From an uncultured virus (IMG/VR IMGVR_UViG_2675903516_000002) (lineage: Duplodnaviria; Heunggongvirae; Uroviricota; Caudoviricetes): 20,000 nt of DNA. The stretch is taken from the IMG/VR virus record IMGVR_UViG_2675903516_000002; one strand, written 5' to 3'. The translations under genes and the position numbers were made by a program. Below, piece after piece: positions 658-16,359 of this stretch (within the stretch, counting starts at the first letter, position 1; each line of letters opens with the position of its first letter). A model generated the notes under the pieces. The model was not told where the DNA came from. It ran no database searches and saw only the letters and a list, made by a program, of their open reading frames with translations.

Positions 658-1164
658 ATGAAAAAGACAGATGTATATACCGTGCTGGAAGAAATTGAGC
701 GTGCTCGTGATGTTTTTTCGCATCTGAAGAGATCCAACTACACTAAAAATAGAGAAGTAAATGAGGTTGAGATATTTGGTCATTTGTCAAAGGCTATGGT
801 TGCAGCAAACTTAATTTATGTGAAGTCAAAAAATAATAATCAAGTACCAGAGAAAAAAGAAAAAGAATGTATAGCATCACCAAAAACTCATCAATTAAAA
901 ATTCTACCTGAGTATTATCAGGCTGTAATTGAGGGGAAGAAAAAAGCGGAGTTACGAGAAAATGACCGAGGTTACTCTATTGGTGATTATTTACTTTTGG
1001 CTGAGTGGGATTTTAAAGGCGATGTATATACCGGGCGTAAAGTCATAGTAGAAGTTACAGATATTACTCTATGTGATTTTGCCACTCCTAATTTTGTCAT
1101 GCTTTCATTTGATGGCATCGACTCTATCAATACTCATTCTTTTGATGGAGGCATCCCATTTTGA
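658..1164 (+). CDS. ASCH/PUA-like (DUF3850) domain protein with N-terminal extension
   Basis: C-terminal half HQLKILPEYYQAVIEGKKKAELRENDRGYSIGDYLLLAEW...YTGR carries the ASCH GxKxxExR motif. TAAGG RBS; AT-rich. Confidence 0.8.
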   Translation: MKKTDVYTVLEEIERARDVFSHLKRSNYTKNREVNEVEIFGHLSKAMVAANLIYVKSKNNNQVPEKKEKECIASPKTHQLKILPEYYQAVIEGKKKAELRENDRGYSIGDYLLLAEWDFKGDVYTGRKVIVEVTDITLCDFATPNFVMLSFDGIDSINTHSFDGGIPF

Positions 1165-1439
1165 ATAACACTCATCCAGCACAAAATATATGGGTGGGTG
1201 TAGACCCCGCCAAGCCGGGCAGTGACAGCTCAGTCACAATGATGTCAGTTGAATCAATGGAACTAATGCTCAATGAAGCGCGCATGGATGAAAGAAAGAA
1301 TCAGGCAGCGCTGGTTTCATTTCGTTTGGATGAGATTGCTAATCAAATTCTAAACCGAGAATTGAACGGTGTAGAGGCGGCGGAGCTGCTTAACTACATC
1401 GCCGAGGGGATTCTTAACCAAGCGCAGGCACAACACTGA
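1161..1439 (+). CDS. DUF2732 family early protein (P2 orf80-like)
   Basis: LNEARMDERK...RLDEIANQI..RELNGVEAAELL is typical of the family. TTG start overlaps the upstream stop, with GGAGG at 1147-1151. Confidence 0.75.
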   Translation: MNNTHPAQNIWVGVDPAKPGSDSSVTMMSVESMELMLNEARMDERKNQAALVSFRLDEIANQILNRELNGVEAAELLNYIAEGILNQAQAQH

Positions 1440-1744
1440 TGGTTGACGAAATTGTCATTGATGCTCGTTACGCAATTACTTTGTGTGAGCCAACCAAAAC
1501 TCTAGGCCGAATTCCAAACCTCGTGCTTAACGAGATTAAATTCACCAAAGAAAATGAGAGGGTATTGGCGGTAATTGCTCACTATCCTACAAGGGTTAGT
1601 TTAGTAAGTGATTTAATTCATCATCGTATTTATCGCTCTGGCGTTAATTCTATTCCGGCATTGGTTGAAGAAACCAAACGCCTTGCTGAATTATGTGAGA
1701 AAGGATTTAAAGATTTTCACTCTCCTAACTTATTACCTAAATAA
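1439..1744 (+). CDS. DUF5405-like early protein (paralogue 1)
   Basis: Coupled start (TGATG). I.ID.RY.IT...LVLNE.K....IAHYP....LV..LI pattern shared with the next ORF. Confidence 0.6.
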   Translation: MVDEIVIDARYAITLCEPTKTLGRIPNLVLNEIKFTKENERVLAVIAHYPTRVSLVSDLIHHRIYRSGVNSIPALVEETKRLAELCEKGFKDFHSPNLLPK

Positions 1745-1754
1745 AGAGTTTATT

Positions 1755-2018
1755 ATGCATATTAAAATTGGTGAAAAACACGTTGTTACTTCTGGCAGTC
1801 TGCAATTTATTCTTAATGAAGTAAAAGTAAGTCAGAAAGGTAAAAGTGAGGGGCAGGAACGTTTAGAGCCTATTGCTTATTATCCAGCTATTGCACAACT
1901 GGTTGAGGGATTAATAAAGCGCAATATAGGTGAAGCGCAAATTAATAGTTTTGCATCACTTGGGAATGAAATTGGTCGCATCGGTAAACTGTGCCAAGAA
2001 GCCTTTTCAGCCAAATGA
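1755..2018 (+). CDS. DUF5405 family early protein (paralogue 2)
   Basis: MHIKIGEKHVVTSGSLQFILNEVKV...GQERLEPIAYYP. ATG at 1755 preferred over 1665, which would overlap the previous gene; ATGA overlap with A. Confidence 0.7.
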   Translation: MHIKIGEKHVVTSGSLQFILNEVKVSQKGKSEGQERLEPIAYYPAIAQLVEGLIKRNIGEAQINSFASLGNEIGRIGKLCQEAFSAK

Positions 2019-5363: not shown

Positions 5364-5387
5364 AAAAAGCCGCCCGGTTCGGCGGCT
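5364..5387 (-). terminator. Intrinsic terminator of the leftward terminase-portal operon
   Basis: Stem AGCCGCC/GGCGGCT with 6-nt loop, followed by a T-run on the minus strand. Confidence 0.8.
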
Positions 5388-5411: not shown

Positions 5412-5801
5412 CTATTTGCAAACTTGAAACGCCGCCAACTTATTGTCATCCGTAAACTGTGCGGCAACAACGCCGTCTTTGACCAGTGAATTAATAATTC
5501 CAAGCGCGCCAGTCATGTATTTGCCTTTAGACATACCGCAAGCTACCTCAGAGTCATGGGCTAACGTCGCGTTACACTCTATTCGATGCGATACCAGCGC
5601 AGTAATACAATCCGGGTCAAGTGACAACGCTTGATTAAGAATATCAACAGCCAGTTGCGCTGTGATTTTCTGGTTAGTTTGAGTTTCCATAATTATTACT
5701 CGTTTCGTTTCGCATTTTTGGGGTGGCTGAGGCGGTGGCGCGGGCCTCTTCACAATATCGCCGGGGTTATATGGCGGTGGTGTTGGCGCTTTACGTCCCA
5801 T
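5412..5801 (-). CDS. Hypothetical protein with Pro-rich N-terminus
   Basis: 129-aa ORF starting right after the portal stop, with GAGGA RBS and ending just before the terminator. Alternative internal start at 5690. Confidence 0.7.
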   Translation of the reverse strand: MGRKAPTPPPYNPGDIVKRPAPPPQPPQKCETKRVIIMETQTNQKITAQLAVDILNQALSLDPDCITALVSHRIECNATLAHDSEVACGMSKGKYMTGALGIINSLVKDGVVAAQFTDDNKLAAFQVCK

Positions 5802-5802
5802 A

Positions 5803-6840
5803 TCAATCCTCGCTTATCAGTTCATAAGGCTTGAACCGGATCACCTCTTGCCCTATCCAGTCATTCACCTCTTTCAATCGTTCTTGCAACGGCGTTAACT
5901 CATTGCGGACAAAGACTTGTGAGGCTTTCGCCACGTCACCGAAACCGCCAGTATTGTTGGGAATAATCCCCATCATCTGCGGTGGCACCCGGTGCACACT
6001 GAGCAGGTCGTCGCGGGTGGCGTTCTTGATATTAAAAAAGTCATCTTTGGTGGCGACTTCGCTCAACGGTAAAATCTGGATACCGTCTTTCTTGCCATTA
6101 GGTGCGTACATAAACAGGTTGCGGAAATTGCCTAACCCTTTAGTGTCGCGCATCGCTTTACGCATTGCCTCAATATCGCTGCTACTTTGCGCGGCGTCAG
6201 TCATATACAGGATGTATCCCGCGTGAGCGCCGTTCTGGTAATACTTGCGTCGAAACAGCGTGGCCGCTTCGTTGAGCCAGGCAGAGTTTAAGCCGCTGAG
6301 ATATTCCGGCAGGCCATAAAGTTCCTGATTAATATCCGGCTCTATCAAGTGGAAAATGCTACCAGCTTCAAACAAGTGTTCATTTTTCCAGTTCTGCACA
6401 AACCAATAGCAATCTTTTTCCAGCCCCCGGCGGGTGTACTTGGCCGGGCTGGGGTCGAGTCGCAGTGGCGCGCCAAGTTGATTGCGGCGAACCTCTAAAA
6501 ACGCATTGCCAAACACCAGATAATCCAGTGCATAGCGGCTAAATGATTGCTGACTGAGCATCGAATGTGGAATAAAGGTACTCGCCAGAATATTGCGCTT
6601 CACATACAGCGGTGAGCTGTGATGCACCGCCGCCCGGAAGCTGCGCGCCAGCCCATCAAAGCTAATCGGCGGGTCATACCATTTACCGTTACCGGTGCAT
6701 TCGATGTAATCCAGTATTTCCCGCTTATCAAGAACGGCGGAGGGCTCGCCAAAGGTGAAAGCCTCCACCGGCTGCTGTTGACTGGCGGTGTGATTAGTTG
6801 CCGGGCGACTTAATGCCTTGCGGCCCTTGCGCTTACTCAT
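5803..6840 (-). CDS. Q: Portal protein gpQ
   Basis: EAFTFGEP, AVHHSSPLYVKRNIL, YGLPEYL, FRRKYYQNGAHAG, HRVPPQMMG. ATG at 6840 coupled to the upstream stop. Confidence 0.97.
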   Translation of the reverse strand: MSKRKGRKALSRPATNHTASQQQPVEAFTFGEPSAVLDKREILDYIECTGNGKWYDPPISFDGLARSFRAAVHHSSPLYVKRNILASTFIPHSMLSQQSFSRYALDYLVFGNAFLEVRRNQLGAPLRLDPSPAKYTRRGLEKDCYWFVQNWKNEHLFEAGSIFHLIEPDINQELYGLPEYLSGLNSAWLNEAATLFRRKYYQNGAHAGYILYMTDAAQSSSDIEAMRKAMRDTKGLGNFRNLFMYAPNGKKDGIQILPLSEVATKDDFFNIKNATRDDLLSVHRVPPQMMGIIPNNTGGFGDVAKASQVFVRNELTPLQERLKEVNDWIGQEVIRFKPYELISED

Positions 6841-7601
6841 TTCACTTCTCCTGCATTGTTTGCCGCTTGTGACCAGTCGCACAAATATAAGAGCTTGAAA
6901 TCATCCGCCGTCATGTGTTTTTCCAGCCAACCCTTATCCCAATCTTTTTCCCATAACGTGCAGCCTTGTTGAATGGCATCATCAGTCGTGACCGATTGAC
7001 GAAATACATCATCAGCACAAAAAACGCCGTTATTTGTGTGTATCACCGGTGCTGTTTTTCGTGGGTGTTGCAGTGAACTATTCCAAATCTTGAACGCAAT
7101 ATGTGAGCGGGAGGGTGTGGTATAGAGCGTTAAACGATGATTTTTGTGCATCGCTATCCCCTTAGCCATTTGCAGTATTGAACGCGGGTTTTTAGCCCAT
7201 GCATATTCACCCAGATACACATTCCCGGTTTGAGCGGCTGCGTGACTGTTTTCACCGTGAAAGGCGATAAGCGCGCCATTACCTAGCAGCAGGTTACTCG
7301 GCGAGAATGGGTGCACGTTTACCCCAACTACTCGGCAAAACTCGGCAATATAAGCGCGGGTATTCAAGGCGCTTGGTCTGGTGCAGGTTAAAAAATGCTG
7401 ATTGCGGCCGCTGGTAATGGCATCCAGTAACGCTTCAAAAGCGAAAAGCCAGTCGGCCCCAATCTGGCGCGACTTGGTGAGACTGCGATCTGTGCCGGTC
7501 TGCCCCACGCGATACCACGTCTTTTGATAGTCAAAGGCCGCGTTTTCGAAATGTTCGCGCAGGCCGTCAACTTGACCAGCAGTGAAAATCATTGATTTCA
7601 T
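6837..7601 (-). CDS. Terminase ATPase-domain-only paralogue with altered Walker motifs (probably related to the extra packaging gene of phage 186)
   Basis: Aligns by eye to gpP residues ~127-370 (FDYQ, KSRQIGA, EALLDAIT.GRNQ, GN.YL.EY, TPS, CDDG/CADD.FRQ). ATGA overlaps at both ends. Confidence 0.88.
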   Translation of the reverse strand: MKSMIFTAGQVDGLREHFENAAFDYQKTWYRVGQTGTDRSLTKSRQIGADWLFAFEALLDAITSGRNQHFLTCTRPSALNTRAYIAEFCRVVGVNVHPFSPSNLLLGNGALIAFHGENSHAAAQTGNVYLGEYAWAKNPRSILQMAKGIAMHKNHRLTLYTTPSRSHIAFKIWNSSLQHPRKTAPVIHTNNGVFCADDVFRQSVTTDDAIQQGCTLWEKDWDKGWLEKHMTADDFKLLYLCDWSQAANNAGEVK

Positions 7602-9370
7602 CCGTAAAACTCCAAAAAATTAGGGCTGTGACCGCCATATGTCGCGGTAAGGGGTTCATTTAACAGAGCGTGCATAATTGCCCACGCCACATCGGCATGG
7701 CTGGCTTCTTCACTGCGGCTGGCGACATAAGTGGAACTCTTACCGCTGGCGGTCATAGTCTTGCGAATGGCCATAAATGACTGGGTGATATCGGTGTGGC
7801 CAGTGTCATATTCCAGACGGCCGTTATTAATGGTGTGCTTGGCTTTCAGCACCATGGCGGTTTTGATTTCAGGGGTGTATTTGATTTCCCTTGCGGCTGG
7901 GAAGAACTGGCGCACCAACTGGAAAACGCCTTGGCCGACGGTAGTGGCATCAATACCGATATATTCCACACAATACTTATGCGTCAGCTCTTCGATATGT
8001 TTAGCCTGCGCTTCAAAATCCATCCCTTTCCACTGGTGGCGCTCCAATACGCGGAACTTGCCGCCCGGCACCATTGGCGGTGCGATCCCCGCGCACCCGG
8101 CACTGTCGCCGCCGTTGGCCTCGGACGGGTCGTAACCAATCCACACCGGGCGATGCCCAAACGGCCGCAACGAATACGGGTTGTAGTCTTCCCACTCTTC
8201 CAGACTGTCCACCATACAAGCCTGCAACTCGGCGAACGGGAAGACGGACGCTTGATCGTCCACAAACTCGCACATCAACAGGTTTTGATATTCTGACGGG
8301 CCGTATTCCAGTGAGAGCTGGTTGAGGTCAAACAGGTTACAGCCGCCCGCCAGTGCATCTTCAACTGTGACTATCTGCCGCCACTGACCATCATCACACA
8401 GCGCACCACGAGCCAAATGGCTGTGGCTTAAATCCAGTTGGATATGGTCGGATTTATTGCGGCGGCCTTTATTGAACAGCTCACCAGACCAGAACGGATA
8501 GGCACTGTGCGCCAGACTCGACGGCGTGGAGAAATAGGTGGTACGCCATTTTTTATGTAATGACATGCCGCTTGCGACTTTGCGCAGTTCCTGAAACTTG
8601 GGTATCCAGAAATATTCATCAAGATAGAGATTGCCGGTGTAGCTCTGCGCAGTACGTACGTTCGTGCCGAGAAAGAACAGGCGCGCCCCGTTGGGTAGCA
8701 CCATCGGGTCGCCTTTCAGGTCAACATCAACCATGCGGGCAAAGTCGATAATGTAGCTTTTGAACACGTGCGCCTGTGCCTTACTGGCGGACAAAAATAT
8801 CTGGTTACGCCCGGTGGTGATGGCATCTAACAGCGCTTCGCGGGCAAAGAAGAAGGTAGCGCCAATCTGACGCGACTTCAGGATATTGCGGATACGGTGG
8901 GCTAGCCCGGCCTCAAACCAATTACGCTGATAATCAAAGATATTTTCGTGAAAAATAGATTCCAGTTTTTCAATCGCGGATTCACTGAACAGGTTTTTAT
9001 CCGGGATTTTGCGCTCCCCTTTGTTGCGGTTCGCCACATTTGGATTTAAATCCGCTTCGCTGCCGGTCTGGCTATAGCGGTTCACCCGCGCCAGCCGTTC
9101 AATCTGGCGGCCTAACAGGTCAATCTCTTTAAAATCCCGCCCCTCTTTGGCGTCTTTCATGATGAGCTGAATCAACCGCGCTTCCATGCTGGTTTCTACA
9201 CGAGAAATGGGCGCAATAGCATCCCACCCGTCGCGCTTCTTCCAGCTCTGCACAGTCGGCGATTTCAGGCTTAGCTGGTCTGCGATTTGGCGCACAGAAA
9301 AACCCTGCCAGTAAAGCAAGGCCGCCTGTCGCCGTGGGTCGCTGATAATGGTGCTCGGTGTCGTATTCAT
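7598..9370 (-). CDS. P: Large terminase (ATPase/nuclease) subunit gpP
   Basis: N-terminal HTH, Walker A LKSRQIGAT, Walker B LYLDE, STPS motif, nuclease WIGYDP and HADVAWA. Confidence 0.98.
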   Translation of the reverse strand: MNTTPSTIISDPRRQAALLYWQGFSVRQIADQLSLKSPTVQSWKKRDGWDAIAPISRVETSMEARLIQLIMKDAKEGRDFKEIDLLGRQIERLARVNRYSQTGSEADLNPNVANRNKGERKIPDKNLFSESAIEKLESIFHENIFDYQRNWFEAGLAHRIRNILKSRQIGATFFFAREALLDAITTGRNQIFLSASKAQAHVFKSYIIDFARMVDVDLKGDPMVLPNGARLFFLGTNVRTAQSYTGNLYLDEYFWIPKFQELRKVASGMSLHKKWRTTYFSTPSSLAHSAYPFWSGELFNKGRRNKSDHIQLDLSHSHLARGALCDDGQWRQIVTVEDALAGGCNLFDLNQLSLEYGPSEYQNLLMCEFVDDQASVFPFAELQACMVDSLEEWEDYNPYSLRPFGHRPVWIGYDPSEANGGDSAGCAGIAPPMVPGGKFRVLERHQWKGMDFEAQAKHIEELTHKYCVEYIGIDATTVGQGVFQLVRQFFPAAREIKYTPEIKTAMVLKAKHTINNGRLEYDTGHTDITQSFMAIRKTMTASGKSSTYVASRSEEASHADVAWAIMHALLNEPLTATYGGHSPNFLEFYG

Positions 9371-10452: not shown

Positions 10453-11682
10453 ATGCGCCCAGCAACCCGTTTTAAATTTAATGCCTATCTAACCCGTCAA
10501 GCCGAGCTGAACGGGGTAGAAACAGGCGACCTGAATAAAAAATTCAGCGTCGAACCCTCTGTTACGCAAACCATCATGACCCGCGTGCAAGAGTCCTCAG
10601 AATTTCTGAGCCGCATCAATATTGTGCCGGTATCGGAGTTGACCGCCGAAAAGGTCGGTCTTGGTGTCAATGGCTCGGTTGCCAGCACCACCGATACTGA
10701 CGGTGGCGACGAACGCGAAACTGCCGAGTTTGCCTCACTAGACAGTGAGAAGTATTTCTGTGAGCAGGTGAACTACGATTTCCATATTCGCTATAACACC
10801 CTTGACCTGTGGGCGCGCTATCAGGACTTCCAGACCCGTTTGCGCGACGCCATTATCAAGCGGCAGGCACTTGACCGCATCATGGCAGGCTTCAATGGCA
10901 CTCACCGCGCCAAAACCTCTAACCGCGCACTCAACCCGCTGTTGCAGGATATCGCGCCGGGCTGGTTACAAAAATACCGCACCAATGCGCCAACCCGCGT
11001 AATGAGTAACATCATCGGTGAAGATGGTGCGGTTGTGTCAGAAAAAATCCGTGTCGGTCATGGCGGTGATTACGTCAATCTGGATGCGCTGGTGATGGAT
11101 GCCACCAATAACATGATTGCTGAATGGCATCAGGAAGACCCTGAACTGGTGGTTATCACTGGCCGCCAGTTGATGCAGGATAAATATTTCCCCATCGTCA
11201 ACAAAGAGCAGGAAAACAGCGAAACCCTCGCCGCTGACTTGATTATTAGCCAGAAACGTATCGGCAATTTACCGGCTATCCGTGTGCCTTTCTTCCCGGC
11301 TAACGCATTCATGATAACCCGCCTCGATAACCTGTCTATTTACTGGCTGGAAGACTCGCACCGCCGCCATATCGATGAGAACGCCAAGCGTGACCGCATC
11401 GAAAACTACGAGTCCATTAAACAGGATTATGTCGTGGAAGATTACACCTGTGGCTGTCTGGTGGAAAACATCGAAATCTTACCGGCGAAAAAAGACAGCA
11501 CCTCGTCCCCGGCTGCGGCCGCATTGATGGTATCGGAAGCCCCGAACTATGACGGCCTGGCTGCGGCGATCATGGCAGCGGTGAAAGTGGCGTCGAACCC
11601 GGAGGATGCCACAGTGGAAACCGCTACTGAAACTCCCCCGGAAACCACAGAAGAAGCACCGGCAACCAAAGGGAGCAAATAA
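10453..11682 (+). CDS. N: Major capsid protein gpN, with C-terminal extension
   Basis: KFSVEPSVTQT, LDRIMAGFNG, PLLQD...GWLQKYR, PFFPANA...TRLDNLSIY. Confidence 0.98.
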   Translation: MRPATRFKFNAYLTRQAELNGVETGDLNKKFSVEPSVTQTIMTRVQESSEFLSRINIVPVSELTAEKVGLGVNGSVASTTDTDGGDERETAEFASLDSEKYFCEQVNYDFHIRYNTLDLWARYQDFQTRLRDAIIKRQALDRIMAGFNGTHRAKTSNRALNPLLQDIAPGWLQKYRTNAPTRVMSNIIGEDGAVVSEKIRVGHGGDYVNLDALVMDATNNMIAEWHQEDPELVVITGRQLMQDKYFPIVNKEQENSETLAADLIISQKRIGNLPAIRVPFFPANAFMITRLDNLSIYWLEDSHRRHIDENAKRDRIENYESIKQDYVVEDYTCGCLVENIEILPAKKDSTSSPAAAALMVSEAPNYDGLAAAIMAAVKVASNPEDATVETATETPPETTEEAPATKGSK

Positions 11683-14792: not shown

Positions 14793-15238
14793 ATGAACTG
14801 AAACCATTTGATGACGCATTGGCCGGGCTGATTGCCAGTCTGACACCCAAAGCCCGCAAAGCGCTGGCGGTGACGGTTGCAAAACGCCTGCGGGCCAGTC
14901 AGCAACAACGCATCAAACGCCAGCAAGCGCCCGACGGCACCCCGTATGCGGCGCGTAAATCTCAACCGTTACGTAAACCCAAGGGCCGGATTAAGCGGGA
15001 AATGTTCGCCAAGTTGCGCACCTCGCGCTATATGAAAGCCAACAGTAGTCCCGATGAGGCGGTGGTTGAGTTTGCCGGGCGCGTGGAACGGATGGCGGCA
15101 GTGCATCATTTTGGCCTGCGTGACCGTCCGAACGTGCACAGCAAAGATGTGCAGTATGATGAGCGACCGTTGCTCGGTTTTAGTCAGCAAGATATTTGGA
15201 ACATTACAGACGAAATGCTAAATCACTTGTCAAAATAA
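14789..15238 (+). CDS. S: Tail completion / virion morphogenesis protein gpS
   Basis: QQQRIKRQQAPDGTPYAARK, MFAKLRT, VHHFGLRD, Y.ERPLLG. Confidence 0.95.
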   Translation: MNELKPFDDALAGLIASLTPKARKALAVTVAKRLRASQQQRIKRQQAPDGTPYAARKSQPLRKPKGRIKREMFAKLRTSRYMKANSSPDEAVVEFAGRVERMAAVHHFGLRDRPNVHSKDVQYDERPLLGFSQQDIWNITDEMLNHLSK

Positions 15239-16307
15239 GGAATTCATGAGGAACAACTTGATTAATTGATGGTGACTTATTGGCATTAAGAATACTGTTC
15301 AAAACTGAATAGCACTCTTTATAGATATCAGGTTGCCTTTCTTTTTTAATACAAGTGTTTTGAATGTATCGCATACAAAAACCAGCGACAAGATCAGCTA
15401 TTTGAATTCCTTTTTTTTTCGTTGATGATTCGAATGACAAGTTAGCTATTTCGTTGAAGTTATAATTAGATGCCGGAGTGTAAGCATTGATATTGTTTTT
15501 TTCTATCTGTACTTTCGCGGCCTTGATGATTTCATCAAACTGCACTTGCTCGTCATGAATAAATTTAACATTAGCTATTTTACCTCGCATGCTTTTGTTA
15601 ACTCTAGCATATACATTACAGAAAGATGATAGATTAGGTAGCATCCATGAGGGGCTACCATTTTTTAATAAATCCTTACTGGGAATATATGTATTATGCC
15701 TATTAACATTCTCATTTAACGCATTGTTTATGTCATCTTTAGTCATCAGCACTGAGTGCAATAAACATGAAGCTATAGGAGTAGTATCTTGAACCATGTT
15801 TTGGTAGTGTTCTACAATGCTTGAAATTACTTTTAAAGTGTCTTGTATCGTTCCACTTTCACATGAGTCTATAAATAAATGTAGAGTGGAATCTGGTAGG
15901 TTATTATATAGACTCCACGCAAAAGACTGCCTTATAAAATTTGATTTTTCACTTTCCGTTTGCAATGCGGGCAAAACAATGTAATTAGTGATATGCGCTA
16001 TTAAGAAATACCTTTTATCAACAATCTCAACAAATACAGGGAATTCATTTTTCTTTAAAAAACAAAACAACTCGACTAACAGTTCTGGTTTTTTGTAGTA
16101 GATGTTTTTTGATTTAAATTCATGCCCCTGAATTTTATGTTTTAACTTTAAACCTTCCATGAAATTAAATATATCATCTTCTTTATTATCTGGAATACCA
16201 ACACAACCTAATGAAAAAACTGGTTGAGATGAAAAGTTGAATTTCTCATCAGCATTAGCTACATCACCAGTGTTACCACTCTCATCTAGATAAAAATTGT
16301 AAGTCAT
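15204..16307 (-). CDS. DUF3800-like (RNase H-fold) protein; AT-rich moron, candidate defence/lysogenic conversion gene
   Basis: N-terminal FYLDESG, HEFK, FIHDEQ and C-terminal S...GIQIADLVAG motifs. ATG at 16307 with GGGAG RBS; 367 aa; antisense to the late genes. Confidence 0.85.
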   Translation of the reverse strand: MTYNFYLDESGNTGDVANADEKFNFSSQPVFSLGCVGIPDNKEDDIFNFMEGLKLKHKIQGHEFKSKNIYYKKPELLVELFCFLKKNEFPVFVEIVDKRYFLIAHITNYIVLPALQTESEKSNFIRQSFAWSLYNNLPDSTLHLFIDSCESGTIQDTLKVISSIVEHYQNMVQDTTPIASCLLHSVLMTKDDINNALNENVNRHNTYIPSKDLLKNGSPSWMLPNLSSFCNVYARVNKSMRGKIANVKFIHDEQVQFDEIIKAAKVQIEKNNINAYTPASNYNFNEIANLSFESSTKKKGIQIADLVAGFCMRYIQNTCIKKERQPDIYKECYSVLNSILNANKSPSINQVVPHEFLILTSDLAFRL

Positions 16308-16339
16308 GTAATTAGCTCCCTGTGTATTCCAATAAACTA

Positions 16340-16359
16340 TTGTGCCATGTCTCATACAA
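16340..16359 (+). promoter_or_regulatory. Ogr/186 B late-activator site of pV
   Basis: TTGT-GCCATGTCTCAT-ACAA (TGT-N12-ACA) shares TTGTGCCA...ACAAC with the P/O site; centred about 55 bp before the V ATG. Confidence 0.8.

Follow-up and report, generated by a model that had tools for sequence, protein, structure and literature searches.

A dispensable gene between terminase and portal in P2-like phages, related to phage 186 W, with a coupled exchange of Walker A and Walker B residues

Why would a tailed phage keep a second, shorter terminase ATPase between its terminase and portal genes when close relatives form plaques without one? The question is raised by a 20,000-nucleotide stretch of DNA from an uncultured member of the Caudoviricetes (IMG/VR record IMGVR_UViG_2675903516_000002), referred to here as the window. 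The window is a segment of a P2-like phage or prophage in which replication gene A is followed by a minus-strand operon encoding the large terminase (TerL), the gene under study (W; protein P0001), the portal protein and a 129-amino-acid (aa) open reading frame (ORF), and then by scaffold, capsid, small terminase, head completion, lysis and tail genes. W lies at 6837..7601 on the minus strand and encodes 254 aa; BLASTP, Pfam and likeness to the W protein of phage 186 mark it as a W-type, stand-alone paralogue of the terminase ATPase domain. We favor reading W as an accessory protein that modulates the packaging machine, probably binds nucleotide and is of benefit under particular conditions, and we put the probability of this reading at somewhat under one half (about 0.45).

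The W ORF is unbroken and is physically tied to both of its neighbors. The letters tcat at 7598..7601 and at 6837..6840 read as ATGA overlaps on the minus strand, the first joining the TerL stop to the W start and the second joining the W stop to the portal start, as described in an earlier note on this stretch. On one side, TerL (7598..9370, minus strand) is a 590-aa protein of the gpP type with helix-turn-helix (HTH), ATPase and nuclease domains and canonical Walker A and B motifs. On the other side, the gpQ-type portal gene (5803..6840, minus strand) starts with the ATG at 6840 and has an AGGAG Shine-Dalgarno sequence, read directly from the DNA, at 6848..6852 on the minus strand, within the final W codons. 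It may be this RNA signal for portal translation, and not the W protein itself, that accounts for the conserved C-terminal Gly-Glu of W proteins. No sigma-70-like site was found inside the TerL-W-portal operon, and a terminator-like hairpin at 5368..5387 (minus strand) closes the operon after the 129-aa ORF. Terminase, W and portal are translated together as part of the late packaging operon.

W covers the ATPase domain of its own TerL and nothing else. The two proteins align at 35% identity over 250 aa (BLASTP, E 4e-45, TerL residues 127-369), and Pfam finds Terminase_6N alone in W, whereas TerL additionally has Terminase_5/HTH and Terminase_6C. W thus lacks both the gpP-type N-terminal HTH (Terminase_5) and the C-terminal RNase H-like nuclease (Terminase_6C) that is present in the adjacent protein. 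With large terminase ATPase domains such as P2 gpP and the T4 gp17, D6E and P74-26 folds, W shares Terminase_6N together with the YQ motif, the P-loop Lys and Arg, the catalytic Glu and the TTPS motif; unlike them, it is dispensable and, beyond the HTH and nuclease, lacks the Mg-binding Thr and Asp. In the window, FDYQ (7524..7535), which we take to be the adenine-binding motif and whose Gln26 is invariant in the family, is identical in both proteins, and YTTPS (7110..7124) is the counterpart of FSTPS in TerL. Walker A reads KSRQIGAD (7452..7475) against KSRQIGAT in TerL; Lys43 and the P-loop Arg45 are present, and the Mg-binding Ser/Thr at the end of the motif is replaced by Asp50. Walker B and the catalytic Glu132 read NVYLGE (7206..7223) against NLYLDE, the Walker B Asp being replaced by Gly131 (codon GGT). 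All four motifs are on the minus strand. The motif columns of the alignment, like the domain boundaries, bear out what the earlier note had read from the letters, including a retained catalytic Glu, FDYQ and TP motif.

Asp50 and Gly131 were equated with the Mg-binding residues through the alignment with the window's own TerL, the motif pattern and the secondary structure of an AlphaFold model, which was built from a 20-sequence alignment (predicted local distance difference test score 72.6, predicted template modeling score 0.76). In this model, Walker A occupies the loop that links strand 38-42 to helix 49-64 and Walker B closes strand 127-130, so that both predicted placements are as expected of Walker A and B. 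The model matches the T4 gp17 ATPase domain with a template modeling (TM) score of 0.65, and its other structural matches include D6E TerL and P74-26 TerL, the terminase ATPase folds as a whole scoring 0.55-0.65. The match at rank 6 is the PhiV-1 terminase bound by Avs3 (8dgc). A profile search of PDB sequences returned no match for W, and for TerL it returned only the nuclease domain; NCBIfam has no family for W.

The gene has long-recorded relatives. The earlier note mentioned an extra gene at the corresponding position of coliphage 186, and a coding sequence (CDS) annotated as 'W protein, similar to Orf12' is indeed found there, between portal (Orf2) and terminase (Orf12). The 186 protein (U32222 CDS 1215..1961; 248 aa compared with 254) is 45% identical to the window protein, which is therefore closer to 186 W than to its own TerL. 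It has the same slot and ATPase-only build, and it belongs to the same clade apart from TerL, a clade of 41 rows with a Shimodaira-Hasegawa-like approximate likelihood ratio test (SH-aLRT) support of 99 and a FastTree support of 93. Sequence and tree alike place the window gene in the W-protein family of phage 186, and W is an old stand-alone paralogue of the P2-type large-terminase ATPase domain. A recent duplication of the terminase is rejected by the 35% identity and the deep clade, in agreement with the divergence noticed earlier. The 186 sequence, annotated in the 1990s, already put the family on record. A 186-type W also occurs in PSP3, EtG, Midge, SI22, SW9 and BIS20; in P2 itself, P and Q abut and a W-type gene is absent, as had been stated.

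The closest records are Yersinia enterocolitica phages vB_YenM_201.16 (93% nucleotide identity) and vB_YenM_56.17, each annotated with two 'terminase large subunit' genes. Their second terminase CDSs (YP_010664228 and YP_010664280) are 92.5% and 83.9% identical to W at the protein level and share the operon and motifs of the window, so this is the same gene with no difference in kind. The accessible portion of the describing paper (PMC9224151) leaves this second CDS undiscussed.

Farther afield, a tblastn search with P0001 matched 489 phage records at 512 places, so that at most 23 records have a second copy. Among 401 genomes sampled from the family of the nearest genome, 108 matched and 6 had a short copy beside the terminase, at 7 loci; within the genus, there were matches in 13 of 28 genomes and W-type copies in 4. 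When 1.84 billion representatives were searched with a profile, 539 hits reached E ≤0.001, many of them proteins 220-285 aa long that begin at the ATPase domain. The order TerL-W-portal on one strand was found at 14 of the 16 loci that were cut out, the other two being broken prophages, and in 70 of 80 viral contigs. The Pro-type relative P0024 has no loci in the viral-contig or genome-contig sets, and its context was reached indirectly through an alignment. Two degraded P2-like prophages, L061 (G322:C33) and L062 (G125:C1), have terminase and portal in pieces and no W.

The substitutions at the two Mg-binding positions are coupled. All proteins in hand were aligned and their motif columns read; 133 rows with a near-complete domain were retained, and rows with fewer than 190 aligned residues, or that were neither clearly short nor clearly full-length, were dropped. 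In every full-length terminase (65 of 65), Walker A ends in Thr or Ser and Walker B has its Asp. The 68 short rows comprise 29 with a Walker A Asp, 31 canonical rows and 8 odd ones, which have Thr or Ser with Asn, Gln, Pro or Ser at Walker B, or in one case a Walker A Asn, or in another no motif at all. All 29 rows with the Walker A Asp lack the Walker B Asp, which is replaced by Ser (14 rows), Gly (10), Pro (4) or Ala (1), and Asp occupies both positions in none of the 133. The coupling also holds when read from the other side: in viral contigs picked by the Walker B pattern [S/P]E only, all 70 W ORFs with a readable Walker A have Asp at its end, five further W ORFs being unreadable by the Walker A pattern. 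At loci found by plain similarity, 12 of 14 W-type genes are swapped, and the canonical two are 186 and a 186-like prophage.

The earlier note allowed that a one-base change, GGT against GAT, might be specific to a strain. For the Walker A Asp, a strain-specific point mutation is rejected, since this Asp is kept across a deep clade; it always accompanies loss of the Walker B Asp. The same cannot be said of the Gly in the window, which is confined to the Yersinia clade (where one partial member has Ser), and the 186 clade is canonical, with KSRQIGAT and VYLDE where the window has KSRQIGAD and VYLGE. Outside the Yersinia clade, Ser is the commonest Walker B residue among swapped proteins. In a terminase-rooted IQ-TREE tree of 58 rows, the W clade splits into the canonical 186 clade (SH-aLRT 99) and a swapped clade of 31 rows (SH-aLRT 80), the latter including two members whose Walker A has later turned to Ser.

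What surrounds the exchanged pair has been kept. Branch lengths in the swapped clade are 0.4-1 changes per site, and across 21 diverse rows of that clade Gln26, Arg39, Arg45 and Gly48 are invariant and Lys43, Asp50 and Glu132 are at least 90% conserved. The catalytic Glu132 is present in 28 of the 29 swapped rows. In canonical P-loop proteins, the Ser/Thr at position K+1 of Walker A and the Asp of Walker B form a hydrogen-bonded pair in which the Ser/Thr ligates Mg, according to the part of PMC9599734 available. W fills the same two positions, beside a conserved Lys and catalytic Glu, with the opposite polarity: Asp in Walker A and Ser, Gly, Pro or Ala in Walker B. As exceptions, that part of the paper names a Gly at K+1, in nucleotide monophosphate kinases, and a Glu that takes the place of Asp in Walker B; it names no Asp at K+1. 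The Asp/Ser arrangement has one carboxylate and one hydroxyl with their places exchanged. The conservation of Lys, Arg, catalytic Glu and the YQ motif, combined with the covariation, favors a rebuilt nucleotide site over a dead one, and we infer that the exchange may be a compensatory rebuild.

Some phages do without the gene. The TerL proteins of vB_YenM_06.16-2 and vB_YenM_31.17 are 99.5% and 98.6% identical to that of the window (tblastn), and in both phages the terminase and portal CDSs share four bases, with nothing in between. The W-less junction, ...TTTTACGGATGAGTAAGCGC..., equals the window sequence minus the 762 nucleotides between the two ATGA overlaps. The overlap at 7598..7601 is thus the place of the TerL-portal joint in the W-less sisters and that at 6837..6840 the second edge of a 762-nucleotide presence/absence cassette, whose flanks are 93-97% identical at the nucleotide level. 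All four phages of the group, two with W and two without, were mitomycin C-induced and plaque-forming, and all were purified three times from single plaques and grown to mass lysates, as reported in the accessible portion of PMC9224151.

A similar polymorphism is seen near 186. The portal-W-terminase stretch of 186 is fully covered in EtG, Midge, PSP3, SI22 and SW9, whereas among the records listed, 19 that are annotated 'terminase | portal' cover just 78% of it, broken into two or three segments. These records represent 17 distinct phages, as SEN1 and FSLSP004 each appear as a GenBank and a RefSeq entry. The W-less group, which consists of the vB_YpM MHG and MDG series, RCIP0057, 613R3, PHB48, SEN1 and FSLSP004, has flanks 93.5-95.3% identical to 186, and the terminase and portal genes of SEN1 abut. 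Presence or absence of W is therefore polymorphic in two separate lineages.

Because phages without W form plaques, W is not needed to make infectious particles and is dispensable for virion production, which the earlier note had not foreseen. An essential role as a core motor subunit is rejected on the same grounds. The lettered genes of 186 were presumably defined by conditional-lethal mutants; should amber mutations in W prove lethal, the existence of natural W-less relatives suggests polarity on the coupled portal gene as the cause.

If W is dispensable, is it maintained? Pairwise Nei-Gojobori estimates of nonsynonymous (dN) and synonymous (dS) divergence were made for five Yersinia-clade loci (the window, 201.16, 56.17 and two genomes; 10 pairs). 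The dN/dS ratio of W is 0.18-0.36, compared with 0.024-0.039 for the last 495 codons of terminase and 0.007-0.036 for the portal gene, at dS values that are alike across all three (0.12-0.49). The W genes are 254 codons long and free of breaks in five of five loci. In 30-codon windows of W, dN/dS ranges from 0.09 to 0.37 and is lowest over residues 106-165; the stretch from Walker B to the C-motif, at 0.09-0.14, is the most conserved part of the protein. W is under purifying selection, and the dN/dS comparison proposed earlier thus comes out well below 1, with no frameshifts.

These figures bear directly on the idea that W is a functionless duplicate in decay, kept for a time by the coupled operon. 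Its dispensability would agree with this idea, as would its relaxed constraint and the lower G+C content at third codon positions of W (0.50, against 0.62 and 0.61 in the flanking genes). However, a decaying gene should not retain the dN/dS ratio, the intact frames at five of five loci and the active-site residues just described, nor should it belong to a deep and diverse family with conserved synteny in 70 of 80 viral contigs. We regard decay as very improbable.

A gene that is co-translated with the packaging genes, under selection and conserved in its pocket, yet optional and fast-evolving, is most readily understood as an accessory, conditional modulator. Homology, synteny, translational coupling, covariation, selection and dispensability are the data behind this favored reading; nucleotide binding, partners and benefit would follow as a proposal. 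In the mechanism we have in mind, W is made along with its two neighbors from the late packaging operon, in a phage that can produce infectious particles without W but in which selection retains it where present. Its nucleotide pocket would have been rebuilt around a Walker A Asp and a small Walker B residue, probably Ser ancestrally and Gly in the window. The site may still bind a Mg-nucleotide, with Asp50 giving the carboxylate, and hydrolysis would perhaps be slow. W would then act on or beside the TerL-portal machine as a nucleotide-dependent modulator and could improve packaging under some condition absent on laboratory plates. A more far-reaching version is tentative: the W clade would represent a long-lived exchange of what is held to be the universal catalytic pair of P-loop NTPases (Thr to Asp, and Asp to Ser and later to Gly or Pro) in proteins that still bind and hydrolyze Mg-ATP, and W would be an optional accessory that runs on ATP and tunes or protects the motor formed by terminase and portal.

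Several observations weigh against such a modulator with a working site. The two residues of the Thr-Asp pair are described in the part of PMC9599734 available as strictly conserved, and replacement of either is stated there to abolish activity in the enzymes studied. In the window, moreover, the Walker B residue is Gly, so the hydroxyl partner of the Asp/Ser arrangement is gone. Of the 29 swapped rows, 11 are near-identical Yersinia relatives and so not independent. When both motif columns are dropped, the best tree needs two changes; a tree uniting the swapped rows is not rejected (approximately unbiased test, p 0.39), leaving a single origin compatible with the data and weakly supported. 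One member inside the swapped clade, P0074, lacks both the Lys and the Glu. Similarly, P0114, P0116, P0123, P0128, P0131 and P0143, which belong to other stand-alone terminase-ATPase lineages outside the W clade, have lost the Walker A Lys, the catalytic Glu or both. They may have arisen by separate duplications and become true pseudo-enzymes, and their existence implies that such proteins can function, or survive, without catalysis. Given similar dS and a higher ratio, the dN of W is also about ten times that of terminase and portal across the five Yersinia-clade loci, and the lower third-position G+C content of W points the same way. Finally, TerL is about 99% identical with or without W and has no sign of co-adaptation with a partner.

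Much of this would suit a catalytically dead pseudo-ATPase that acts purely by binding, whether it serves as a dominant partner, sits in the TerL ring as a spacer or docks at the portal. Both residues of the pair are replaced in W, the Yersinia clade lacks even the Walker B Ser, several other stand-alone lineages have dispensed with Lys or Glu, and the dN of W is high relative to that of TerL. A dead protein, however, would leave the conserved pocket residues to serve the fold or nucleotide-independent contacts only, whereas Lys, the P-loop Arg, the catalytic Glu and the YQ Gln are among the best-conserved positions of the swapped clade. Moreover, a reciprocal and strictly coupled change, with no row having Asp at both positions and 70 of 70 contig ORFs in agreement, looks compensatory rather than like decay. 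A binder of this sort is the main rival to the favored reading and, on this balance, somewhat less likely. The earlier note had left the choice between a pseudo-ATPase and an Asp-swapped enzyme; the covariation and the retained Lys, Arg, Glu and Gln favor an Asp-swapped site over a plain dead pseudo-ATPase.

The optional character of W and its rate of change also recall genes engaged in conflict. W could shield terminase from Avs-type immunity or mimic it, as a form of counter-defense, or it could guard against hijacking satellites or rival phages. The presence/absence polymorphism in two lineages, between flanking genes that are 93-99% identical, would fit such a role, as would the roughly tenfold dN at equal dS. 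The predicted fold of W is also the fold bound by Avs3 in 8dgc. Features such as these we would count as typical of accessory conflict genes. Against this, no part of W has a windowed dN/dS above 0.37, and PADLOC gives no match for W, in a library that covers defense systems and not counter-defense. From the Avs mechanism, one would expect a protein resembling terminase to set off the sensor and not to silence it, and W is expressed late only. No link to satellites turned up in the analyses made. A role in conflict is therefore unlikely, and a conditional modulator of packaging remains our preferred account of the gene.

Other features of the window deserve brief mention. The 129-aa ORF that ends the operon (5412..5801, minus strand) overlaps the portal stop and lies next to the hairpin at 5368..5387. 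It is annotated as an exonuclease in relatives and has no Pfam match; it is found in 201.16, 56.17 and 31.17, and other genes take its place in 06.16-2. A 383-aa DUF3800 gene (15204..16355, minus strand) sits between tail genes S and V on the opposite strand and resembles an inserted accessory gene, or moron, in the late region. The major capsid protein (10453..11682, plus strand) is 409 aa long and continues at its C terminus for about 70 aa past the P2 capsid profile, which stops at residue 340; phage 31.17 has a shorter capsid gene of 1137 nucleotides. In the early region, a gene at 658..1164 (plus strand) encodes a 168-aa protein with DUF3850/ASCH domains.

Terminase is the standard example of a motor that packages viral DNA, and both P2 and 186 serve as model phages; even so, a literature search that left most subscription journals outside its reach turned up no account of what the 186 W family or terminase paralogues do. 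To a family long on record, the present analysis adds the strict and reciprocal coupling of the Walker A Thr and Walker B Asp exchange in most of its members, the conservation of the rest of the ATP site, the tenfold gap in dN and the exact natural deletion in plaque-forming sisters. As the 762-nucleotide cassette is seamlessly present or absent between near-identical packaging modules, an in-frame deletion of W should be viable and its phenotype conditional, and the tenfold dN fits an accessory or conflict-related role. If the exchange does represent a working, rebuilt site, the W family would offer a ready-made test of how far P-loop catalysis depends on the Thr-Asp pair, and W itself would be part of an undescribed accessory layer of phage DNA packaging.

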